This document shows, one piece after another, positions 17,601-34,950 of a DNA stretch of 64,000 nucleotides. Location of the stretch: NCBI GenBank assembly GCA_043228905.1, contig JBHGNT010000007.1:16926001-16990000 (forward strand), written 5' to 3'. Each line of letters opens with the position of its first letter. Position 1 is the first letter of the stretch. Origin of the DNA: Azolla caroliniana (lineage: Eukaryota > Plantae > Polypodiophyta). The translations under genes were made by a program, and so were the position numbers. The notes under the pieces were generated by a model, which saw only the letters and a list, made by a program, of their open reading frames with translations, did not search any database and was not told the DNA's origin.

Positions 17601-19748
17601 CATCTTGCTACTCTAGGAGATGGCTTCACTTCCAAGGGAGAATACGAAACCAAAGGTTGATCATCGATCAGTTTGTAGCCAACCTAATCGTCTTGTGTGT
17701 ACCCTTCAAGTCGAAATGGCAAGGCCGATTCGTAGAGAATACCAGAATCCATTGTGCCACTCACGTATCGTAATACTCGCTTAGCGCAATCCAAGTGAAT
17801 GTCTCGTGGTTTTTACATGAATTGGTTGAGGAGACCAATCGGGTAGCTGAGGTCGGGTCAAGTGATCGTGAGGTAGATGAGGCGCCTGATCATTTGTTGA
17901 TACAGAGTCCGCTCACACTCTTTTGTGTCGGAGTCGACATCAAGTTTGAGATTTTGATCAAGAGGGGTTTCCACAGGTTTACACTCAATCATCCCAAACA
18001 TGTATAACAAGTTAAGGATGTAGTGTCGTTGAGAGATCATAATGCCGGCTGGAGTCCGAATTACATCGATGCCAAGGAAGTAATGGAGCTCCTTCATGTC
18101 CGTCATCTCGAATTTGTTGGAGAGGAGGGACTTCACCTTGTTGATGTCGACTAGACTTTCACCTCCAATGACTAGATCACCTACATATAGGATGAGGACA
18201 ATCGGACTTCCAGAATTGCTTCTTATGTAGAGGAAGTTGTCAGATTTCGACATTCGGAAGCCGATTCGATGAAGATACTGTGTTATCTTCGAGTGCCAAG
18301 CATGTGGTGCTTGCTTAAGCCCGTAGAGTGGCTTCTTTAGTCAGCAAACTGATTTCGGATGGGTGCTTGATTCGAAGCCGGGTGGTTGTACCATGTACAC
18401 CTCCTCTTCTAAGTCGCTTTGAAGAAAGGAGTTCTTGACGTCCATTTGATGGAGATGTCATCCTTTCACCACTGCTAGTGCAATCATGGTTCGAACAGTC
18501 GTCATCTTTGCTATTGGGGCAAAGGTCTCTTCATAGTCAACACCGTGCGTTTCTGCATAGCCTTTTGCGACAAGTTGAGCTTTGTAGCGGTTGACAAAGT
18601 CATCAACATTATACTTCACATTGTAAATCGATCTGCAATCGATCTCCTTTTTGTGTGGTGAGTGGGGAATGCGATCCCATGTCTCGTTCTTGCATAGTGC
18701 CCCCATCTCCTAGTTCATTGCTTCGACCCATCGTAGATCCTTGGCTGCCTCGGAATTTTTTTCCGGTTCACGAACTGTCGCCACCTTCATCATAAAGGCA
18801 TAATGGTATGCCATATAGTCGTTGTAGCTGAATCAGCTAACAAGATTCTTCTCACGAGTGGAGCGACAGAGTTTTTTGTTTGCCATGACAATGACTTTCT
18901 TTACACCAGGTGTCCACATGATAGGTATATCAAAGACACCGAACTCATTGTTGAATGAGTGAGTCGATTCATTGCCGTCGAATTGATCGTCTTCATATTC
19001 TGGCATTTTTGCCTTGCCTTTGTCCATCTTCAGACTAGGCCGAGATGTGCTCTGGTCAATCGGGGGCTCTTGTGGCCCACTGAGCTTGGTTGTGATCGGA
19101 ATTTCTTCGAACATATGCCTTAGTTGACCTTCATCTTCTATCTCTTGGTTGGCCAAGTTTGGGTTGATTGGGGTTGGAGTCGGAGTCGTCTCTAGTTTGT
19201 ACCAGGATGTCGACTCATTGAAAACGACGTCCCCACTCACTCGAACTTTCCGGGTAGATGGATTATAGCACTTGTACCCCTTTTTCTCTAACAAGTACCC
19301 CACAATGATGCACTTCTCCAATTTTGGCTCAAGCTTTTGCCACTTCTCGTCGGGAATGTGCACGTATGCAATTGAGCCGAATATCCTTACATGGGATAGA
19401 TCTGGTTTCTTTCCATAGTATTTGCTGCTTTTGCCCAATATGACTTGGGCATATGCTTCTTGTTTAGCTTGGCCTGTGCTACTTCGAGGATGTGCTGATT
19501 CTTGCGTTCGGTTACATCGTTCTGTTGCGGTGTGTGTTGGCAAGTGAATTCTCACCGAATTCCTTCTTGTTGAAGGTATGCCGTGAACGCATCGGAGAAG
19601 TAGTCCTTCCCTTTGTCTGATCGAAGACATCATACATGGCGGCTGGTTGTCTTTTCGACTTCGCTTTTGAATTTTTGGAAGTGTGAAAACACTTCGCTCT
19701 TCATCCTCATGGGAAAGATCCATGTATATCTGGGATTGATTCCCGACA
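14647..19748 (+). mobile_element. Copia element A, internally deleted
   Basis: 5' LTR 14647-15206 (TGTT...GACA); PBS TGGTATGAGAGC 15210-15221; gag, protease (WVIDS..GASFH) and integrase fragments; only the last ~15 bp of the 3' LTR remain (GATTGATTCCCGACA, ending 19748); 5-bp TSD CTATG at 14642-14646 and 19749-19753. Confidence 0.88.
16756..19730 (-). mobile_element. Copia element B (5'-truncated), inserted in the integrase of A
   Basis: 3' LTR 16756-17131 with PPT GAGGGGGCG; integrase, RT and RNase H fragments (ORFs 18833-19807, 18458-18706, 17858-18253, 17325-17603 with HASTKHIEVHYHF). Confidence 0.85.
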
Positions 19749-20281
19749 CTATGTACTCGGCTTTTGTGGTAGACAGAGCCGTGCACTCTTGAAGCTCTGA
19801 CCTCCATGATATGGCACTGCCACCATCGCGTACATGATACTTCCTATAGTCGATGCGTAGGGTATCTTTCCATTGAGCTCTCTCTCCTTATCCACCAAAG
19901 GAGAGTCTCTATCCGATAGTTAGATCGATGTTGGAAGTAGTGTTGGTGTTCGCTTCACGTTCACCAAGTTGAAGTGCCTCAACACCTTTCGAATGTAGTC
20001 GGACTGGCTGAGTCGGAGGAGAGTCTTTGTATTCCGATTTCGCCCGATCCTCATGCTCAATATGTGTCGGGCTTGTTTGAGTTACTTCATTGCAAACTTG
20101 TCGTGAAGGCTCCGCTTTAGCTTTCCGATTTTGGCTTGATTGCTTCCTGCAATCATCATGTCGTCAACATATAGGATTAGATAGATCCGGGACTTGTTGG
20201 CCAGTTGCCGAGTATATAGACATGGGTCAGAGTTAGACCGGTTGTAGCCAAGATGTCAAATGTAGGAGTCTAACTTCTGGT

Positions 20282-20776: not shown

Positions 20777-21447
20777 TAGCAATGGGCCCGATTTCGGCTC
20801 AAACCGAACCGAACTGATAAACCCTAGCTTAACAGTTTATAGGTTCGAAGATAAATAAACGGTTTGGTTTGGTTTCAAATGTTACTAATTGGTTTCGGTA
20901 CGGTTTTAAATTTATCAGTTTATCAGTTTATCGATTTCTGTTTATGTGGTTTGGTTTAAAGGTTTATAGGTTAAAATATACTCATAAACTTTAAACTTTT
21001 AATTTTAAACTCTAGTTTTGACTTATTAAATTTTATATGCATTATATGTAGATTCTCCTTTTCATTTATGATGATTAAATATGATAAGTATGATGATCAA
21101 ATTTATGATAAGTATAATGATCAAATTTATGATCAATATGATGCCAAAATTTATGATAAGTATGATGAATAAATTTATGATGATTTTCTCACACAAATTT
21201 ATAATAAGTATGATGATTAATATCAATAAAAAATGGTTTGGTTTGGTTTTGATTTATGATAAACCAGTTTGGTTTGGTTCTAAATTTTTCGTAAATAGTT
21301 TGGTTCCTCCTATTCTTTAAATGGTTTGGTTTAACGGTTCAACTCTAAACAGTTTAGTTTAAATGGCTTCAAAAAATTTAAACAGTTTGGTTTGGTTTCA
21401 AGGCCAAGAAACCGAACCGAACCGAAACCGAGCCGGGCCCATTGCTA
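20777..21447. mobile_element. Non-autonomous hAT element 2
   Basis: Perfect 14-bp TIR TAGCAATGGGCCCG; TSD ACCACATA/ACCACATC (7/8); AACCG subterminal motifs; internal ~24-bp ATGAT-rich minisatellite at ~21060-21225. Confidence 0.9.
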
Positions 21448-22987
21448 ACCACATCCTCAACACTTGTTTTAAGCCATAAAGGCTTTTCTTCAATCGACAT
21501 ACGAGGTGGCCTTCCTTCCCCATCGCCGAGAAGCGTACCGGTTGAGACATATAGATGTCTTCTTCCAAGTCTTCATGTAGGAAAGTTGTCTTGATGTCCA
21601 ACTGCTCAAGCTCTACATCCTTTGTAACCACGACCATGAGTAGCAGCCGAAAGGTGGTCATCTTGACTACCAGAGAGAATATCTCATCATAGTCAACCTT
21701 GTATTCTTGTTTGAATCCCTCTGCGACGAGCCGAGCTTTATATTTGGGGTTCTCTGAGTCGGATACATATTTGTATCTGTAAACCCATTTGTATGGCAAC
21801 AACTTCTTTCCAAGTGATAGTTCAACCAACTCCCATGTGTTGTTCTCTTTAATTGGGTCCATCTTGGATTTCATGGCTTGTAGCCATGTGTCAGCGTCTG
21901 GCGTATGACTTCTTCGTAGGAGCTCGGTTCACTAGTGTCCGTGTAGTTTACGTAGTCGAGGACCGGTGAATAGAAATCTGTCGGCCTTTTGACTCGTGGG
22001 GATCTCCTAGGTGCCGACTTTGTCGGTTCGATTTCTTCAATCGGTTGAGTTGGCCGATCGGTATTGCGTGAACCACCTTTAGGAGTCCTTCAGAATGACT
22101 CACCCCTGTAATTATACAATTTCAGCGATGTCAAATCCTCCTCCCTTGTTTCGGGATTGATTGACAAGGTAGCCTTTCCCTTGGTGATTTTGACTTTGTC
22201 GTTGTCGGCTCTTGTCAATCTCGTAGTCGAATCAATTTCGACTAGTGGACCTCTTGTCGATTTGGAGTCGGCAGGCGTGGTGTCGGCTCGATCGATTTTG
22301 ACTGTTTGTCGAATCTTCGATTCAGCCTGGTTGGTCAATCTTTCTTCATTGTCTCTATTGACTTCGAAAAAGACGTTTTTGCTGGTTCCGCTCAGAGAGA
22401 ATCGAGTCTTCATTGAAAACTACGTCACTACTTCGGATCAGTTTCCAGTTCTTTGGGTCCCATAATCGGTATCCGAATTCCCTGGATCGGTTCCATAACC
22501 GAGAAATATGCATTTTGTTGCGTGGGGTGCCAGCTTGGTTCTTTTCTCCCTAAGGATAAATGTTGAGATATCGGTCCGTCCGGATGGGGACCAGTCGATC
22601 TAGAGGAGGAAACCAGATCGGATGGATCCGGAAGGATTTCCAAAAACCAGATTGGATGGACCCGGAAGGGGTCCGAATGTATCCAGTATGAACTGTGAAG
22701 GGAGAAAGACTTGTAAATATGTTTCCGACCCGTTTCCGATGGGCCGTTGAGGACACATTTGTAAATAGCCCGTAAGTTATATGAATATAAATATAACTAG
22801 GGCAAAAGGATAGTTGTGATGTTAGTTGTTGTTGTAGTGTTGTACACAAAGAGAGAGAGAAAGAAAGAAGAAGAAAGAAAGATATATTAACGTCTTCTAA
22901 GGCCAAATTTGGCCCATGAGACAAATAGGTTACAACAAAAAATGAGTGTTTATCCAATCATCAAAACTAAAAATAAAAGAAAATAGC

Positions 22988-25900
22988 TTAAGCTAAGAAA
23001 GTTCTAGTAGTGTACAAAAACTTTGCACCAAGCCTAATCTCATTTCCACCCAAGTCTCTCAAAAAGAAGTGGGAGGTCAAAAGTTTTTGGTGTGGGTGTG
23101 ACCCATGTCCCGATGCATAGAGTGCCCTAGCCATGGCTTTTAGGCAGTGTAGTTCACGTTCCCTTATTTTCTTTATTGCTTCTACATCTCGTCGAGTTGC
23201 TTTGAAACCCGGCATCCGAGGGCGTTTGGTTCTTCTTTGATTTTCTGCTTCATCAAGGAGAAGTCCGAGTGGTGCAGGTGTGTCGACATTCATTGTCTCC
23301 CCCTGTTCCTGAAAAACTTCATTTGTTATATGTTGGTAAACATTAGCAACATTATTATCAACGTTTTGTAATTTGTTCTCTCTGTGGTGTTTCAATTCTA
23401 AGATGTATCTACCTAATTTCTTTATATCTAGTGTATCTAATAGTTTAGGGAGGGTGGGAGAGGAACCAAGTATGTCTTGGTATTTTGCCCTTATCTCGGC
23501 ATAGGTGGGGCATTTGCATGTAAAATGGTACTCATCCTCTATCTCTATGTGGCATAACCTACATATCCTTTCCTCCCTAGGGACTCCATTAGTACGTCCA
23601 TTCTCAATCTCAAGTTGGTGAGATGATATTCTAAGTTGACCAATGGCAACCCTTAGTGCATGTGGTAAGAATACATCTAGATATTTTGGGCGCGTGATAA
23701 AACCTAACTCAGAGAAGTGCATAAAGTGTTCCTTATAGTACGACATTTTAGATGGGAGTGGCTCTAGTGGGGTGATCCATTTATACCGGGTATAAATTTG
23801 CCATATTTCTTGGCGTATTACTTTATTACGGTCCTCATGAGAGAGTAAAGTGTTATCATTCGTGTGGTCGTACTTAAGGGGGGGGAGGTTAGTAATGTCT
23901 AGACCGTTGGCAAGAAGCCAACTCACCATCATGCCATACCATGAGCTAGTATAGCCGGACTCATACAGTGCTCGAGAAGCCTTAAAGGCTTGGTGGGATA
24001 TTCTATCAAGTGGTTGGTTATGTATCCTGTGTATAAAGACTACCAGTTGAAAAAGTGCTTCTACTAACATAGGGGGTAGAGTGAACTCAGCCCTAATAAT
24101 GTCATGTGGGACCGACGATTTGCTTCGGAGTTGGCGTGATAACATCATCACCAATGGTCTCTCTAATTGCGTCCACATGAAAGATGGTAGTCCTGGGGCC
24201 CAAACCGCTGATGCATACATGAGAGAGGGAGTCACTAATGAGTCAAAGAGCCACCCTTTAGTTCGTGGCTCTTGGAAGTATGCTTGGTGGCATTGTCTCT
24301 CGAGGAGTGAGAGGGATGCATGTCCTCTTGTAAGTCTATCCTTCGCTGCTTGTGTCATCGAAAATTTACCTGAGCGGGCACTGAAAGTGACTCCGAGATA
24401 GACATATGATCCAACCACCTCAACTGGGCTATGGGAGATAGTTAGGTGACACTTAGCTCTAACTTGGGCCGACGTGTGGAAGATAAGGACTTTAGTTTTC
24501 CCTAGATTCACTACCAATCCTCGTTGTGTGCAAAAGTCATCTAAGGCATTAAGGTGCCTTTGTAGGTCGTGTTCGGATTCAGAGAGCAAAACTATGTCAT
24601 CTGCATAGAGCAAGATATGCACCTGCGTATCTCCAAGGACTACTCCATTGCCTCCCTTACGAGCAATAAAATCTGTGATCTCATCAATGTAGATCCCAAA
24701 AAGAGTCGGAGATAAGGGGCAACCTTGTTTTACACCAATAGTGCTAGTGAAACTATCGGATATGCCGCCTGGGCATCGAACACACCCGGACACTTGTTCA
24801 TATAGTGCGTAGATGGCCCAAACCATGTCATCTGGTATCCTCAAGCTCTTAAGCCTATCAAACAACCGCTCTCTAGGGACCGTGTCAAAGGCTTTGCGGA
24901 AGTCCACAAAACAACAATATAGTTTCTTCTTGCGAGCCTTAGTCTGGTCAATTAAGCATCTAAGTGTGAAGATATGGTCAATAGTGGAGAAGGCTCGTCT
25001 AAAGCCGGCCTGTTCAGGTGCACGAAGATTTAAGGTCTCCATATACTCGCTAAGCTCTGCCTCCATTACTGCACCATATAATTTAGCAAGGGTATGACCT
25101 ATCATAATGGTCCTATAAGTATTTGGGTCCATGGGGTCCCCCCCCTTATGTATGGGGGCCACTGTGTTCATGGTCCATTGTGATGGAAAACCCTCTACAA
25201 AGGCACGATTGAAGATTAGAGTTAGTAAGGGAGCTAGGCACTCTCTCGCGTATATGATGTGTTCTGCTCGCAATCCTGTGTGGTCCATGGACTTCCTATG
25301 TTGTAATTTCTTTATGACCTTCGTGACCCTAGAGGTCGTGAAGAGTGTCCCCATAGTAGGTCGGGGTGTGGAAGACATTGGAATGGGTGGTTGGTTTGGG
25401 ATGTGGTAAAGTCTCTCTGTATAAGTGTGCCAAGTTTCGGGATCTTCGATGGGTGTTTGTGGTCTTGGTTCCCGTAATCTCTTCCATGCAGTGGCACAAT
25501 CGCTACTCATGAGCATGTGGTAGAGTTCCCAATATTGGGATGCCTCCCATGCTCGTCTCTTACGACGTGTCATCTTGCACATTTCTTTACGAGCTTGTAC
25601 TGAGGTAATACTACCACTGAGTTGCGATATTGTAAGTTGTCGATGTAAGCACCTACAATCCTCATCATACCATCTATTTTGTGGCATAGATCCTACTTTA
25701 CCTTGATTGGAGTGTTTCGTGTATGGGAAGCTGCTAACCGCTGCAGAATGAAGGATGTGTGTGAGTTTTGTACTAAGGCTCTCTAAAGGTAGGGAGGGAT
25801 CAAGGGAGGAGAGATGGGCTTGAACATGTCAAGCATATATGTCAGAGAGCTCATGTGTGAAATGTATTGTGATGTCATGGCGTGGTTGACTAGAGTTGGT

Positions 25901-26782
25901 GACGTTAGAGATATCGCATTTTATCTCGAAGTATAAGAAACTATGGTCCGCGCCAATAGGACATGGGGCCACTCGGAAGGAGTTAATCATGTGGGTAGCT
26001 TCAGGGCGTCCTATTAGATAATCGACTGTGCTTTCCCCTCCTCCATGTGGGAAACATGTGAGCTCTTCCGAACTTGGCCACTTGGCTAAACCATTATATA
26101 TGACCATTTGGTGCCGACTACCGAGTTCGAGCAAATGATGGCCAAAGCTCGTGGCGTCTGCACCTTGATCCTTTGATCTACGTGTGGTGTCTATGTCTGA
26201 AGGATCGACATTTACCATTTCTAGGTTTCTATTCATTTGAAATATTGTGCATTGTCGGGATTGGGTTCTCGCATTAAAGTCTCCTACAAGGAATACTTCG
26301 CCTTGGGAAGAATATCGGATTATGTCATCCGATAGAGGTTCATATGGGGAAGGCCCATGTGGCACTCCGTCATCAACTAATCTCGCCTCGCCAGCCAGAT
26401 TATAACGAGAGCCTTTTGGGGGGAAGTAACAAATGGCGAAAATTACTGCCTTGTCCTTGCTTGTGGAGACTTTCACCCACATAAAACGAGCTTCTGGGTC
26501 TGTGCTCAGTATTTCTATCCTATTATGTAGCTCCCTCCGAAACAATATTGCGACACCTCCAGATCCCCTGGTAGTGCATCGACGTGAGGTTTGTCTAAAA
26601 GCCGACTCCCAACGAAATCCTTCGACTCGTGGGAGTCCCCTATTTGGGCTTTGGTGTGTTTCTACTAGGCAAACTATATCTGATTCCTTTAATATCCCCT
26701 CTAGGCGGCCGGGGTGTGTCCAGAGTGCGCCGTTACAATTCCATAAGGTCATCCTAAGTGTGTTTTCTGTCACATGGGCCAC
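22988..26782 (-). pseudogene. LINE ORF2: APE endonuclease, reverse transcriptase and C-terminal CCHC; one premature in-frame TGA at 25829-25831
   Basis: APE motifs WNCNG, CLVETH, GDFNAR, TVDY and GADH; RT motifs QAGFR, FVDFRKAFD, GVKQGCPLSP, LYADD and YLG; C-terminal RICRLC..EDEYHFTCKC. ORFs 25829-26782 and 22988-25687 share one frame, with 47 open codons between them. Confidence 0.92.
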
Positions 26783-26788
26783 ACGCCG

Positions 26789-27595
26789 TCAATTAGTAGT
26801 GCGATCATTTATGATCACTCGCCCATCTCGATAAAAGGCGCGATGCCCGTCTTTGCGAGCTTGCATAACCTTTGGCATACAACTCTTGCGATGCTCAATT
26901 TGCATCTTGGTGAGGTCTTCATCGAGATAGATAGGGTCCCCACCCAATCCTCGAAGAATTGGTCTCTTCTTAAAGAAAGTGATTCTAGAGTCTAAGTCTT
27001 TAAATTGAAGAACTAAGGCTCTCTTCCTAGTTGTGTCGCGTCCGGCCCTCCAAGCTTTGGTGATAGGTAGGGTCGTTGTGTACCCTAACATTTTCCCGAG
27101 TGTTTGTGCATCCTCGTCCGGGGATGCACCTTCCTTGAGCCCAATGACACGCACATTTAGGCGTCGGGCCTGACACATTTTCTCCTCTTCGAGGGTGGTA
27201 TTAACAATATTTTCATCCTTTATTTCTTTTTTAATGTTTCTTTTAACGACATCTACCCAACCTGTTTTTGCTAACTCTATGTTATTTTTAACCTCCTCTT
27301 TAACTTTTTTGATCTCATCTTTTATATCCTCTATGGAGGATATTTCACCGTCCTCTCGGGATACCTTGATGTCATTAAGTTGTTGTTTGAGGTTTGTGTT
27401 TTCCTCTTTAAGTTTTTCTATTTCGGCCTTGAGGGTGTCTTTTTCCTCTCTATCTTTTTTCTTGTGGGTTTCGGCGTCTTTCACCCATTTTTTCATATCC
27501 GTCTCTATTTTTGTTAAACGGTTAAACATATCCAAAAAGTCCTCCTTACTTATAGCCTCGTCTTGTGTATCCTTGTGTTCCTTTCGTTTAGACAT
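26789..27595 (-). CDS. LINE ORF1 (coiled coil plus RRM-like region)
   Basis: 268 aa; N-terminal heptad-rich coiled coil; RRLNVRVIGLKE, LVLQFKD and IYLDEDLTK motifs typical of LINE ORF1 RNA-binding regions. Confidence 0.85.
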   Translation of the reverse strand: MSKRKEHKDTQDEAISKEDFLDMFNRLTKIETDMKKWVKDAETHKKKDREEKDTLKAEIEKLKEENTNLKQQLNDIKVSREDGEISSIEDIKDEIKKVKEEVKNNIELAKTGWVDVVKRNIKKEIKDENIVNTTLEEEKMCQARRLNVRVIGLKEGASPDEDAQTLGKMLGYTTTLPITKAWRAGRDTTRKRALVLQFKDLDSRITFFKKRPILRGLGGDPIYLDEDLTKMQIEHRKSCMPKVMQARKDGHRAFYRDGRVIINDRTTN

Positions 27596-30500
27596 TGTAG
27601 TGTCAATAAGAAAAGAAAAAAAGGATAAAATAAATGGGTTCGAGACTTAGCCGAGTTTGTGTTATGTCGTAGTCACATTGGCATTTCGCACACGACGAGC
27701 ACGCTAAAAGGGATGCGCCGCCAAGAGAAGAAACGCGACACTCGGCAACCTCAAGAAACAAGGAAGAGAAGAGCACGGCAACGGCAATGGCGACTACAAC
27801 GGATGATGATGAACTGCAGCAGGTCGTCCAGCACGCCGACGGCAGCAGACGGCGACGGACGTTAGTAGACAACGACGGACGTCAGAGGCGGCAGCGCGGC
27901 AACAGACGACAGCAGCACGATGGGGGGGGACTGCAGCTCGGTAGCAGGCGGCGACAGACGTCGCAGACGGCAGCGACGACAGCGTGGCGCACGACCGTTG
28001 CAGAGAGAGAGACAAAAAACATTTTTCTGTTGTAACCGCCAGTTGGCGAAGATAAAGCTCGAGGTCATTGCCTCTAAGTCTCCTATTGTACCCTTCCTCT
28101 CTATAGTGAGTCTGTTCGGAGCTAGAGAACTCTCGTAGTTTTGCCTCTCGAGGTTTTCCACATAAACATCCGGTGTCGTCTCGGTTGACTACGTAAGTGC
28201 GTTGTTATTTTCTATTCAATCTTCCATTTCCGTGGTGAGGTTCGGTTGTGGCCGGGCGCTATTTTCTTCAAATCTGGTATCAAAGATTGGTTTCAAGACT
28301 AAATAGAAAATGGAAGATCCATTCGGCGGCATGCTCAAGCTCACATGCTCCAACTACCCAGTATGGAAGTTGAAGATAAGGGACATTTTGGTGGTCAAAG
28401 ATCTCTGGCTGCCGGTATAGTTCGGAGATGCAAGACCAAACAAGATAGATGCTCTGACTTGGGAGGTAATGCACATGAAGACAACAACCTACATTCGATG
28501 CTTCATCGACATGAGCTTGTACAACAACATCAATGAAGGAGAGTAAGGCTCGTGAACTTTGGGAGAAGATAGGAATCATGTTTCAGAACAAGAATGCCGT
28601 AAATTGAGTCTCAGTATTCCAGAAGTTAGTGGGACTGAGATATCAAGACGACTCCAGCATGGCAGAGCACATGAATGCCTTCTGGGGGCTTATAAATCAA
28701 ACAACCTAGTTGGAAGTACCTCTAGCTGATGAGGTACTCGAGCTGTTGCTGCTCAGTTCCCTTTCGGATAGTTGGGAGACATTAGTTGTCACTTTGGGCA
28801 ATACCGGGCCGAAAGGGAAACACCTATCCCTAGCAAGGGTTAAATCAAGCTTGTTGGATGAAGAGGCTTGTCAAAAAACAAGGAAGTGATCTTCGACCCA
28901 AAAGCCTTGGTTACCAAAACCGACGCACAACGAGGAAGTGGCCGGAATCGGAGTCCCTAGAACTGGGATAAATTGGGGACGAGGTCAAAATCAAGGGGGA
29001 GCCCCACGGGCTTCTATTGTGGGAAGTCAGGGCATTTCTAGAAGAATTGCCAACACTTCCGGAAGGAGAAAGGGGGAGTCGACAATGCCAACTCGAAGAA
29101 GGGTCCGAACTGGAAGAGTTCGGATCAGAAAGGAACATCAACAATCGTGACAACTGAAGAAGAAATGTTTTTTATCACTGAGGAGAGCGAGCTAAATCTT
29201 TTCAACGATGAAACGGCGTGGGTGGTTGACTCTAGAGTGTCATTCCATCTTACCCCCGACCAGAAGTACATAGCCGGTGATCACAACTGTGTAAGGATGG
29301 GAAATGAAGGTGCATGTTGAACCGTCGGCATAGGAGATGTGTGTTTGACTACATCAACCGGGTGCAAACTGTTGTTGAAAGATGTCTGACACGTTCAGTA
29401 GGTTCGAATGAACCTGATATCAACCGGTTGGCTAGATGATGAAGGCTACACCAGTAGCATCCGGAATGAAGTCATGAAGTTCAGCAAAGGGAGCCTAATC
29501 ATCGCCCAAGCCCAGAAGATCAACACCTTGTACTTGATGCATGCCTGGATATGCTGGGAGGAAGTGAACATAGCTTCCGACATTGCTAGTGAGCTGTGGC
29601 ACAAGTGGTTGTGCCAGATGAGCCAGAAAGGGATGCGTAAATTTGTTGAGGACAACCTCATTTTGGACGTGAAAGATGTGTATCTTGAGAGGTACACCGA
29701 CTGCTTGGCCGGCAAGCAAAACCGAACCTCTTTCCGGACCAGACCACCGACAAGATAGAAAGAACCAATGAAGCTCGGGCATACCGATGTATGCCAAGTG
29801 GATGCGAAGTCACATGTTGGGTCGTAGTACTTCGTGATGTTCATAGATGACCATAGCTGGAAGATGTGGGTCTCCCCGCTGAAGACGAAGGATCATGTGT
29901 TGATTATCTTCAAGAAGTTCCATGCAAGAGTGGAAAGAGAAACTGGCTAGAAGCTGAAAGCTGTTCGAGCCGACAACAGTGGAGAGTACCGTGGGTAGTT
30001 CAAGGAATACTACCGGTCAAAAGGAATCCAGCTCGAATTTACCGTACCGAAGACACCTGAACGACTGGCCGAAAGGATGAACCGAGTTATGATGGAGAGA
30101 GTTTGGAGCATGCTGGCACATGCTAAGTTGTCCAATACGTTTTGGGCTAAGGTGCTGATGACGGTGACCTATGTGATAAATAGATCATCCTCAACGCCCT
30201 TGGATGGAGACACACCACAAAGAGTATGGTACCGGCATTTGAAGGTGTTTGGTTGTCTTGCCTACATGCATGTTGCAAAGCACAAGAGAGAGAAATTGGA
30301 TCCAAAGTCCCGACCATGCATATTAATTGGGTACAATGATGATGAGTTTGGCTATCGAGTGTGGGACTTGGTCGACAAGAAGGTTTTCCGGAGTTGAGAC
30401 ATAGTCTTCATGGAAGACAAGACCATTACCGATTGGGAGTTGCAGAAGAAGACAATGAACTCCGAGTCGACCGACAGAGATCGGTTGAAAGATACAAGAA

Positions 30501-30992
30501 CCCATCCGGCCGGAAGCTGGATCACACTCGAAGAACCGGCCGAAGTCTGAAAAGAAACCTAACTGACCGAAGAAGAATCGAACACCGGAACCGGATAAGA
30601 CCCCGAATCGGATTTAGATGAAGAACAGCTGGTGGAACCGGTGGTAGAAAACCAAGGACGAAGATACCCTCTAAGAGAGAGAAGGCCCCCCCAGAGATTT
30701 CCGGATGTAGAGCATGTTTTACTGACCGACGAAGGGGAGGCAAAAAGCTTCGAAGAAGCAAAGAAAGACACCCACAACCGCAAGTGGTTAAGTGCCATGC
30801 CGGATGAGATGGATTCCTTGCATGAGAACCACATATACGAATTGACAGAGCTGCTGGAAGGGAAGAGAGCACTTCGGAACAAGTGGGTGTACAAGCTAAA
30901 CCCGGGAGACGCCAGAAATCCACTGAGATACAAAGCTCACATTGTGGTGAAGGGCTTCCAACAGAAGAAAGGAGTGGATTTCGATGAGATCT

Positions 30993-32573
30993 TGTTGGAC
31001 TCATTTTTATTGTCATAGTGAATTTGATTTACTAGATGTCTCGGCCTATGGGAGCAATGAATGGCTATATGTCCTAGACCTCCGCAATATAAGCACAGAC
31101 AGTTTGCTTGCTGTCGTTGCTTCTCTTCGTCCGACAACAGTCCTCGTCGTTGAGTGATATCGATGTCCATGGGTGTAGGATTATCCATTGGGACTGGACT
31201 ACGTGTTTGCCTTGGAGTTGGAGCAGGGCTATATGTTTGCCTTGGGGATGATTGTGTCGTTACTGATGCATAAGTTGGTGTGAATCTTGATCTTGTTATT
31301 TGTTGTTGTCACTCACATTGATGCTCAAAAAGGCGATTATCACCTTGTATTGCTCAACTAATAGCTTTTGTAAGTGACCTTGGATCCTTAGGGAAGGTAG
31401 GAAGTAAGTCTTTGACATCACTACAAAGGCCTGGATGGAATTACTCCATTAGGGCTTGTTCATCCCAAGGAATATTGCTTGCGACAAGATGGAAATTGGT
31501 TACATATGTCGAACCTAGCTGATCACCTTGACGTAGTGTACGAATCTTGAGGATAATTGTTCTCACCCCATTAGTATCTCCGAAACAAGCCTTAAATTCT
31601 TTGATAAATTCCTCAAAATTATTCAGTAGAGGAGAATTTGTCTCTAGCAATGGAGCAAACTACGAGAACGTTATGCCAGTCAATAAGGTGCCCACTAACC
31701 CGACTCGTGATGCATCTGCCGGATAACGTTTGGGATGCATTTGAATCACCAACCATACTTGATTCAAGAAACCTCGGAAATGCGCCCTTGAACCATCAAA
31801 TTTAGCTGGGAGGCTGATTTTGGATTCCTTGATAAGTCCTTGACCTTCGACCCTTTGTTGTTGTAACACTACGATTGTCGACTCTAATTGTTGAACTTGT
31901 CGTGTGAACTCCTCTTGTTGTTGCCGCTTTTCTATAGTAACCTTTTGTAGATCCCCAAGTAGACGTTGATTCTCTACTTCAAGAGATGCGAACTTGGATT
32001 TAATATTCTCCATTTCTGCAACAAGGGTGAGATATTCTTCTGAGTTAATGGCAACCATGGTTTCGTGATGGTTACAGAGGAGGATGAGAGAGAGAGAGAG
32101 AGAGTGAGTGAGGGAATTTGAATCAAACTGTCAAAACCAAGAATAAAAGATAGAGTGATAGAAGAAGGATATAAGGGAACACGAGAAGAAAGGAACGAAA
32201 TGCTAATAGAAGAATGAGTGTATTAAGATAGAGAAAGAAAGAGAATGGATACAAGATATGTAATGAGAGCTAAAGACTAGTGTTGATTCGAATTGATTTG
32301 AGAATACATGTATGCCCTTATTTATAGGTTCCTATAGAATAGCTTAGAGATTTCTATAATGTTCTAGAATGTTCTAGACCTAGAATGTTCTAGGACATTC
32401 TAGAACATTCTAGAATGATCTAGAGTTTTTACAATAATCAATCTAATACAAAAAGTAGCTTATATCCTTTGATATGACAATAAGCTATCTTAATGATTGA
32501 GGTTTTCAATTATGGATTACAAGGTTCGAGGTTCAAGTCTGGGTGACGCCATAATGGTCATGTGTTCATGACA
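30993..32573 (-). mobile_element. Tcn1-like Gypsy element E: 5' LTR (32129-32573) and decayed gag
   Basis: LTR TGTCATGAAC...TGACA; gag LPAKFDGSRAHFRGFLNQ, IPWDEQALM, PTPMDID and zinc knuckle CLYCGGLGHIAIHC; truncated after gag. Confidence 0.85.
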
Positions 32574-33240
32574 CCATCTGCTCGAGCTCTAGGTTTTCTG
32601 TGTGAGAATATCTCGGAGGGGGTGGTCATCTTGACTACTGGTGAGAATATCTCGGAGTAGTCGACCCCATGTTCTTGTTTGAAACCCAATTTGTAGTTTG
32701 ACCAGCTCCCATGTCTAATTCTTGTGAATCGAGTCCATTTCGAATTTCATGGCTTGTAGCCATGTTTCGACGTCTGTTGCAGCCATAGCTTCTTCATAAG
32801 TGCTTGGTTCTCCTGCATCGATGTAGTTGACATAGTCGAGGCCAAGTTGGTAGAACTCTTTCTGCCTTCGAGCTCGTCCAGATCTCCTAAGTGCCGAACT
32901 AAGAGGTTCAGATTCTTCCATCGGGCTTCACATCCGAATACATGGAGCCTATTGTAGGTCGGTTGTTTGCCTGACCATAGTGCCTGTGGCACTTCGAGCC
33001 TGATTACCTTCGACGGTGATAGATTTACAAAGTATACTGTCATTTGCAATGCTTTAGCCTAGAACTCCAGTTTTAGTCCGGCTTGTTGGAGCATTGCCAT
33101 CACCCTCTCCTGGATTGTTCGGTTGATCCGTTCTACCACTCCATTCTACATGGATGTGTAAGGAACAGTCTTTTGATGTCGAATACCTTTTTTGGACAGG
33201 TACTGCTAGGAGGTATATTCGCCTCCGTTGTCGGATCGGA
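32574..33240 (-). mobile_element. Copia integrase/RT fragment (related to element C)
   Basis: RSDNGGEY near 33215-33240, RLHVFGC, GEPSTYEEAM...WLQAMKFEMDSI; internal deletions. Confidence 0.75.
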
Positions 33241-34036
33241 GTGTCTCTCTCTATCTCTCACTCTTTGTGTACACGCTCTATCAACACTCTATTACAGCAT
33301 CATCACTAAAGTGATTGCCCTAAGTCATATTTATACTTATATGACATTTGGGCTATTTACAAATATAGCCTCGATGGGCTCACCATGAAACATATTTACA
33401 CATATGTCCTTGGATCCGGTTGGCACCGGATCCATCCGGTTTCCGAGTCTCATCTGGAACCCTTTCGGATCTTGTTCCTTCATCCAACTCGTCCGATCCG
33501 GCTTCTCCGGTTGTCATCCGAATACCATCCGGAGGGACTGAATTCCCAACAAATTCCCCCTTCACTCCGGCATGGGATTTCTCTTAATCCGATCCGTTTC
33601 CGACACATGTCTAGTTTGTCAGCTGATAGCACCTTGGTTAGCATATCCGATCCGTTCTTCGTGTGGATCTTCGTTTGCACGAAGTCTTGATCTTCTACTT
33701 TCTCCTGGATCCAATGATACCTTGGTTGGATATGCTTCGTCCAGGAATGGTAGGCCGCATTATTCGCAAGGTGGATGGCACTTTGATTGTCGTAGTAGAG
33801 CCGGAATTCCTCCTGCCGGATCCCTACCTCTCCAATGAAATCCTTCATCCAAATTATCTCCTTGCTGGCTTGCACAGCTGCCATGTACTTCGATAGTGCA
33901 ACGGACTTCTGCAGCCTTGATTGCCATGATACAGCTCCCCCTGCATAAGTCATGATATATCCGAATGTAGCTCGACTGGTATCCGCATCAGCCGACATAT
34001 CTGAATCCGTGAAACCGTTAAGTTGGGGTTTACCGA

Positions 34037-34950
34037 TGTCGTGAAGATTTTCGACAACAGTGTGAAAATCGCGTGGAATCGAGAAGGTGTAATGTGCACA
34101 CGAATGAAAGGGGTGATGGTTACACTCATACATTAGCATGTTGTAAATATAAATGTAATGAGAACACCTAAAGCCTATTTGCATTTTCAAGCATGCGAAG
34201 GGGTGCAAGTATTGAACCTTGCACCTCCAAGATAGAAGACAACTGACTTATCATTAGGCTAAGTTATTTCTTCAAATCATCGTTATGTTTTTCACATGTG
34301 AATGCTCATACATGAGAGCTTGGATGAGGTACATGGTCATCATGCATCACATGTGATGCATGAGCGCCAAATGGCAATCATGCCTCGCATGCATTTCATG
34401 CATTGTATGCATGTCTTACACCCTCACATGCACATATGCATGGGGGCATCTATATAAGTGGGAATCGATCGATGAATCAAACAAGCTATGTATCAAGCAA
34501 GCTATGGATTAAACCAAGATATTTTAATAAGAAAACCTAGGTATCTTATTGGCGATGTGTCTTGTTTCTCTAAATTAAAGTGAAGGGTTCAAACCTAGAA
34601 TTGGAATTTCAATCCGTCTACATCTATCTATCTATCTATCTTAAATACTTCCTCAATTTTCGTTTCTCTCTCTCACACACTCTCAACCACATTAGTGTGT
34701 TACTTCAGCTACCTACACGTCAATCTACCGCACCATTGAGTCGGGTTCGGGAGCGTCTTCGACAACAAAGGACGACTCGATGATAAGCCTAAATGGCCAA
34801 TTCCTTACAAACACAAGTCACCCGATTTGTTCTCCCCGGTCAAAGACCTTGGTGGTCCCGTTCAACTGACCCGTAGGCGCGGAAATCCCATCGTCAATCC
34901 TCCATAACCACTAGCGGATAGAGGCCCGGTGCTTGTCTGCGCTTGTGACA
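34037..34950 (+). mobile_element. LTR-like insertion (TGTCGTGAAGAT family) within element F
   Basis: 5' end and central ATGAGCGCCAAATGGCAA..GGCATCTATA block are shared with 41025-41890; the right end is uncertain (34764 or 34950). Confidence 0.6.
34198..34262 (-). other. tRNA-Arg-like module inside an LTR
   Basis: Minus strand: TAGCCTAATGATAAGTC..CTTCTAT..GGTGCAAG GTTCAATA CTTGCACC, i.e. A box, TCT-type loop and a paired T-arm-like hairpin. Confidence 0.55.

Follow-up and report, generated by a model that had tools for sequence, protein, structure and literature searches.

A candidate readthrough junction between ORF1 and ORF2 of an Azolla LINE, with a predicted long-range helix to the 3' end of the element

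The LINE copy in the window and its ORF1-ORF2 junction

The window, a stretch of 64,000 nucleotides from Azolla caroliniana, contains on its minus strand an APE-type non-LTR retrotransposon (LINE), recognized by the order of APE and RT in ORF2, an ORF1 for an RNA-binding protein upstream, a simple-repeat tail and copies of variable 5' extent (Table 1). The predicted fold of the ORF1 product resembles the human L1 ORF1p trimer (2ykp, E 2.6e-7), and the protein terminates at its natural C-terminal domain. Together with an APE-RT protein that has a C-terminal Cys/His motif and a microsatellite tail, this layout presumably resembles that of RTEX clade elements. Relatives with a named source belong to the ferns Adiantum and Ceratopteris, and two RT relatives with 37% identity (P0059 and P0085) come from Taxus chinensis and Calypogeia fissa, so the wider LINE group extends beyond ferns; the viral contigs and prokaryote genomes searched contained no relatives. 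Because the TGA between APE and RT is absent from all 28 other readable copies, we regard the window copy as dead and this TGA as no signal, which rules it out as a further readthrough site.

Table 1. Parts of the LINE copy, in window coordinates
Feature	Positions	Strand	Basis
Full-length APE-type LINE, family A1, dead copy	22851..28001	minus	other copies align from 28001 to 22851-22864 at 95-99%
ORF1, 268 aa from its AUG: coiled coil, RRM, CTD, L1 ORF1p-like	26792..27595	minus	predicted fold
UGA stop of ORF1, followed in frame by ORF2; predicted site of readthrough	26789..26791	minus	frame; comparison of copies and lineages
Post-stop bases +1 to +8 (CGG context, spacer)	26781..26788	minus	length fixed in 14/14 lineages
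Putative proximal pairing strand, +8 to +23	26766..26781	minus	third codon positions conserved
First in-frame AUG, codon 13, within APE strand 1	26750..26752	minus	ATC in sister subfamily A2; absent in 7/14 lineages
APE endonuclease domain, model residues 10-290	25919..26761	minus	PF03372 E 4.8e-12; fold similar to L1 endonuclease, E 1e-12
Premature TGA between APE and RT	25829..25831	minus	private to the window copy: 0/28 other readable copies
Reverse transcriptase domain	24404..25153	minus	PF00078 E 4.5e-34
ORF2 frame	22988..26788	minus	1,249 codons in intact copy L253; final codons in the window copy come after a one-base deletion
Putative distal pairing strand, 3' UTR, 3,866 nt from the stop	22910..22925	minus	complementarity to post-stop bases
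3'-terminal stem-loop, 5' arm = distal strand; predicted alternative conformation	22892..22922	minus	10 consensus pairs over 8 sequences; -13.8 kcal/mol
(TTTC)n/(TC)n microsatellite tail	22851..22880	minus	sequence

Two further kinds of repeat lie elsewhere in the window. A 394-nt piece at 5087-5480 matches the 3' end of L268, a family-C copy, at 92% and has the distal strand, the stem-loop and the (TTTC)n tail; judged by its sequence, it is likely a 5'-truncated family-C copy. Broken LTR-retrotransposon frames flank the LINE (17858-19843, 21398-21928 and 29402-34247), with motifs that we take to be copia-like RT and integrase.

On the minus strand the junction reads ACT ACT AAT TGA CGG CGT GTG GCC CAT GTG ACA GAA AAC ACA CTT AGG ATG ACC TTA TGG AAT. 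Its TGA closes a 285-codon stop-to-stop frame, and the same frame runs on into a 319-codon frame with APE, which bears out the preliminary description in placing the ORF1 stop in the ORF2 frame with no spacer. Among the findings that would speak against it, that description had named a sense codon in the consensus and a frame that varies between copies. A search of the genome for the junction gave 539 candidates, of which 40 were scored and the best 30 compared, and the sample is hence biased towards the window copy. All 30 nearest copies, the window itself among them, carry a stop at the junction (29 TGA, 1 TAA), which rules out that the window copy turned a sense codon into TGA and makes the stop the family state. 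The string TGA-CGG-x-GTG is present in 54 of 65 distinct family-A junctions. Among these close copies (L001-L030) the open frame before the stop ranges from 53 to 322 codons, and the sampled ORF2 stretch is more often open; 5' truncation and rearrangement account in part for the variation upstream.

Frame, start codons and stop contexts in 14 lineages

A wider sample was picked on the endonuclease and not on the junction, by pattern and protein searches of the genome and one metagenome scan (54 loci). It combines families A (four subfamilies), B, C and E of the Azolla genome with ten lineages from elsewhere; the 22 ingroup representatives with a readable junction were reduced to 14 by collapsing those at least 80% identical (8 dropped). 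Metagenome loci cut, rearranged or decayed at the junction were left out, as were decayed genomic copies with indels (e.g. L034, L310 and L320). The pattern for family E was prompted by one locus selected on its junction (L297), and family D, a single internally deleted and decayed copy found through the junction pattern, stands outside the 14. Endonuclease identity across the 14 lineages is about 30-75%.

ORF1 and ORF2 are in frame in all 14 lineages, and frame variation, another finding that would have counted against the original reading, was thus not encountered. The linker from the stop to the conserved Trp has seven lengths (12, 13, 15, 16, 17, 19 and 20 codons); all the length changes lie beyond codon +7, with no indel between the stop and the post-stop motif. 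Seven of the 14 have no AUG ahead of the WN motif, the first catalytic endonuclease motif, and their first Met falls at codon 20-166. The young subfamily A2, with near-identical copies and open ORF2 frames of 1,250 codons, likewise lacks an AUG before WN (first Met 103), and in young family B, with intact ORF2, the first Met is at codon 161, from which it follows that ORF2 does not depend on the AUG at 26750-26752. In the window this AUG encodes the fourth residue of predicted APE strand 1 (residues 10-17) and aligns to Ile10 of human L1 endonuclease. The earlier view that it makes a poor start because it sits within strand 1 is right about the position but weak as an argument alone, since only three strand-1 residues would be lost; the absence of the AUG from half the lineages and from A2 carries the point instead.

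Database proteins of these elements begin at a downstream Met or at alternative codons. No natural single-frame ORF1-ORF2 fusion was found among protein relatives, a search that is weak evidence of absence; the sole long match (P0033) has APE before ORF1, looks like a chimeric gene model and was rejected. A distant APE element (L246, 25% identity) has an AUG right before the first strand and none of the junction features, and is outgroup-like.

The stops of the 14 lineages are UGA-CGG (8), UGA-CGA (1), UAG-GGA, -GGG or -GAA (4) and UAG-CAA-GCA (1), with no UAA. They fit the type II, type III and yeast-form (CAR-NBA) type I readthrough contexts as these are listed in PMC3159437; the contexts matched also appear in the list of PMC11166343. 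The classing of UGA-CGG as a type II context, made in the preliminary description, agrees with the former source. CGG makes up 0.5% of 2,520 APE codons. Two details depart from the strictest plant forms: family A has U, not A, directly before the stop, and the family E context differs from strict plant CAR-YYA. On the tree the nine UGA lineages can form one clade (support 72/72), in which case two context switches would suffice; two independent UGA origins, which we had considered, are neither supported nor rejected by a tree compatible with a single clade.

At codon +3, families C and E have AUG and families A and B have GUG; of the E copies that are in register, 14 of 20 carry AUG or GUG there. 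Over the 14 lineages it is AUG or GUG in five, AUG in only two of these, and elsewhere GCG (four times), GAG (twice), CCG, GCC or ACA; an AUG/GUG start at this codon was dropped as a general rule. A conserved AUG overlapping or adjoining the stop in the ORF2 frame, as in SART1, is likewise missing, with AUG at +3 in 2/14, and the AUGA overlaps that occur at junctions open another frame. Near-cognate Leu or Ile codons start strand 1 in 7 of the 14.

Post-stop nucleotides and their partner at the 3' end

Codons +3 to +6 vary in the residue encoded, and the third positions at +9, +12, +15 and +18 are identical in 12, 14, 13 and 14 of the 14 lineages, with G at +9 in 12. For comparison, 16 four-fold APE columns reach at most 11/14, and 3 of 149 APE columns of any kind reach 13. 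The peptide encoded here is a low-confidence coil in the predicted model. A conserved out-of-frame AUG at +14 was considered and set aside, being missing from m214, m224 and m229 and accounted for by the pairing described below. A local stem-loop beyond the stop is not conserved: the 14 lineages share 0 consensus pairs, and single-sequence folds differ among families. The local-context model of the preliminary description is incomplete, as the conserved partner is the 3' end of the element.

This partner was found by a duplex scan of the post-stop 27-mer against 4.2-5.8 kb of downstream sequence in each copy. For 18 of the 19 long copies from families A-C, the top-ranking duplex involves the 3' end of the element; in the exception (L267) the distal strand is mutated and the 3' site ranks second. 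In family E the 3' end is the best partner in 11 of 20 stretches, and the other nine have no E-type 3' end on top, three of them carrying the end of another family. The two strands in the window (26781-26766 and 22925-22910) are 3,866 nt apart, and the distance is 3.4-3.9 kb in these families. Family-A ORF2 has a 10-nt complement of its own, some 420 nt in, which was rejected: it pairs less well than the 3' site and did not turn up in B, C or E. Nor was there an Rfam match at E<=1.

The pairing was compared over five related families, all of the Azolla genome (A, B, C and E of the 14 lineages plus D), which is a small sample. With one copy of each, 63 of 65 pairs are kept over +9 to +21, and matching each strand to that of its own family is the single best of 120 permutations (mean 58), where 1/120 is the floor of the test. 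Double changes occur at +10 (G-C/A-U), +13 (C-G/U-A), +17 (A-U/G-C, with a U-U mismatch in family A) and +21 (A-U/C-G/U-G). Departures comprise five G-U against one A-C, which favors pairing on the sense RNA. In six of six copies the proximal 18-mer beats all 1,287-1,499 other element windows in pairing with the 3' end; C and D proximal strands pair nearly as well with the distal strands of other families. In contig runs of four other organisms no variant of at least 15% was seen at 22910-22924, with variants in the hairpin loop and just outside the helix, and in the same type of runs none of the 40 junction variants listed, with 130 further rows beyond these, falls in 26763-26794. The former runs cover the last 70 nt (22871-22940) at a summed depth roughly 50-80-fold that found elsewhere in the 3' UTR, an excess that many 5'-truncated copies or a short non-autonomous family with the same tail would explain.

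The distal strand also forms the 5' arm of the terminal stem-loop, which has 10 consensus pairs, two of them with double changes, over eight sequences. Since helix and stem-loop share this strand, a switch is predicted, and in the folding models the two are mutually exclusive. The local 3' fold is put at -10 to -14 kcal/mol (-1.6 in the decayed D copy) against -23 to -27 for the long-range duplex, and a two-strand fold at -32.3 against -18.7 for the separate strands; these are predictions in which the cost of the loop is ignored, the duplex energies leaving out the entropy cost of 3.9 kb. Between subfamilies B1 and B2 (L261 and L263) an identical T/C difference is present at +11 of the proximal strand and in the terminal hairpin's 3' arm, which means that the two sequences competing for the distal strand have changed in step. 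In family E the change at +17 has its counterpart both in the distal strand and in the local stem. Reverse transcriptases of some LINE clades recognize a 3' stem-loop.

Readthrough, its alternatives and known systems

The predicted helix begins 7-8 nt past the stop and has a tombusvirus-like reach, on which grounds we read the junction as a site of programmed readthrough, stimulated by a long-range helix of the tombusvirus kind and yielding an ORF1-APE-RT fusion. We consider the fusion by readthrough probable and, with somewhat less assurance, take the long-range helix to be the stimulator. From the frame, the stop contexts, the missing AUGs, the complementarity and the covariation, all observed directly, we infer the following course. 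Most ribosomes would halt at the stop and release ORF1p. On an RNA whose 3' end has folded back, a helix predicted at 12-17 bp would stand 7-8 nt beyond the stop, as viral readthrough stems do, and a near-cognate tRNA would read the stop at a rate of a few percent; the product would be a fusion of about 1,520 aa (268+1+1,249). As it elongates, the ribosome would unwind the helix and let the distal strand refold into the terminal stem-loop, likely the binding site of the reverse transcriptase. Enzyme would be made from RNAs with an intact 3' end only, and the ORF1 part could tether the fusion to ORF1p trimers on the same RNA. That the 3' stem-loop of the whole LINE clade is such a two-state switch, an arm of the readthrough stem on full-length RNA and an RT binding site once the ribosome has passed, is a more tentative proposal, to which we give slightly less than even chances. 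If it is true, one element sets the ORF1:ORF2 stoichiometry, checks RNA completeness and enforces cis-preference, and it has remained functional while the stop context shifted among three classical readthrough types.

Two other readings retain some weight. The stop might be read through by virtue of its local context, with the helix serving mainly to shield the RNA from nonsense-mediated decay or to hide the terminal stem-loop until ORF2 is translated. The roughly 3.9 kb behind the ORF1 stop would be a target of long-3'-UTR decay in plants as that pathway is described in PMC6277124, and the predicted exclusion between helix and stem-loop suits a mask, but neither shield nor mask would need the spacing of 7-8 nt that is fixed in all 14 lineages and suits a stimulator at the decoding site. 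We think it improbable that such a role replaces stimulation, although it can coexist with the readthrough-fusion reading. Slightly less probable still is termination-reinitiation, in which ORF1p is released and a ribosome held by the helix restarts in frame a few codons on, at an AUG or GUG at +3 or at no start codon, to make free ORF2p. L1 reportedly copes with the loss of its ORF2 AUG, and the start-like codon +3 of families A, B, C and E covers all four non-decayed families of the Azolla genome. According to PMC5972666, moreover, stop-start coupling in SART1 depends on a structure further downstream, and an unconventional kind of reinitiation is proposed for L1. Against this, codon +3 is not start-like in 9 of 14 lineages, and m214, m224, m226, m228 and m229 (m227 is listed likewise) lack both AUG and near-cognate codons ahead of strand 1. 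Pairing at +8 and +9 accounts for the U and G of AUG/GUG, the helix would bury codon +3, and reinitiation explains neither the CGG that follows every UGA nor the lack of UAA.

Two remaining explanations we hold to be very unlikely. Removal of the stop from a minority of transcripts by splicing or RNA editing has nothing positive to recommend it beyond a branch-point-like string and a CAG at the family-A junction, which are not kept in other lineages, and it leaves the leaky contexts and the third-position conservation without explanation. The junction might equally be a historical accident, its frame, context and complementarity inherited from one ancestor with no function, given that the lineages share ancestry and both pairing sites are homologous across families. 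Yet the frame was kept through each of at least six length changes, four helix positions were altered on both sides, and a rare CpG-containing codon, CGG, was retained across lineages 42-46% identical.

Programmed readthrough as we propose it has its closest parallel in the tombusvirus CIRV, where readthrough requires a PRTE-DRTE pairing that spans about 3.5 kb and is coupled to a 3' switch, and where mutually exclusive 3' structures are proposed to connect readthrough, replication, quality control and cis-preference (PMC3234231). Like the system described there, the LINE has a polymerase frame behind a leaky-type stop, kilobase-scale pairing to a 3' element, here with covariation, and predicted exclusive 3' structures. 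It differs in being a nuclear retrotransposon whose pairing is read from sequence alone, and in its proximal element, which in CIRV sits in a large local stem-loop. In the LINE none is conserved and the predicted 12-17 bp long-range helix takes the position of the stem, so that it would work like a PRTE but is not one. The tombusvirus pairing had failed to act when placed in a bare dual-luciferase context. The type II motif of Virgaviridae, given in PMC3159437 as stop-CGx-xxx-xxG with an 8-nt spacer and a stem of at least 12 bp with compensatory changes, offers a second comparison, which extends to alphaviruses; the LINE shares UGA-CGG, the G at +9 and a comparable spacer and predicted stem length. 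The viral stem, however, closes within about 100-200 nt, whereas the predicted second arm in the LINE is 3.4-3.9 kb away, and the proximal motif of the LINE recurs in related lineages behind type III-like and type I-like contexts.

Among LINEs, readthrough of the ORF1 stop has been suggested before, for the Paramecium non-LTR Group 3, in which ORF1 and ORF2 are in one frame; the suggestion, made from consensus sequences, takes up one sentence of PMC5405496. Unlike the fern LINE, that group is a distinct ciliate clade, and the sentence comes without context, structure or test. The passages on other described LINEs in PMC5972666, PMC3894237 and PMC1965478 report stop-start coupling or unconventional reinitiation, and that in PMC5009743 concerns HeT-A and TART only. 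The present element shares with SART1, human L1 and Zorro3 a bicistronic RNA and low ORF2 output, and its ORF1p and APE folds are L1-like. Those elements instead give a separate ORF2p by way of overlapping stop and start codons, a spacer of 63 nt or a first ATG that is required, and the same passages describe no pairing with the 3' end. In the literature searched, subscription journals and Repbase Reports lying outside it, no LINE was described with a long-range readthrough signal. The present analysis adds the comparison of 14 lineages, which speaks against a codon +3 start, the finding of three context types, and the covariation over five families.

How LINE ORF2 is translated is termed an open question in PMC3894237, and the preference of LINEs for their own RNA is another. 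The answer that this clade suggests is short: a single stop, a predicted helix of 13 pairs in which compensatory variants occur naturally, and families that are young and intact yet lack a usable AUG. If the reading is true, nuclear retrotransposons combine a Gag-Pol-like fusion strategy with a long-range readthrough switch of the plant-virus type, and annotation pipelines misplace the ORF2 starts of these elements.

Two minor observations concern strand spacing. A locus found by the junction pattern (L298, G000:C5:487300-494300) has a stop-GGG string and a strong 15-bp complement 2.3 kb downstream; with no ORF1 or APE around it, it was left out and is probably another repeat. The internally deleted copies L291/L292 (family D) and L334 (E2) retain both strands, at 523 and 522 nt, and are possibly non-autonomous derivatives, or the spacing arose by chance.
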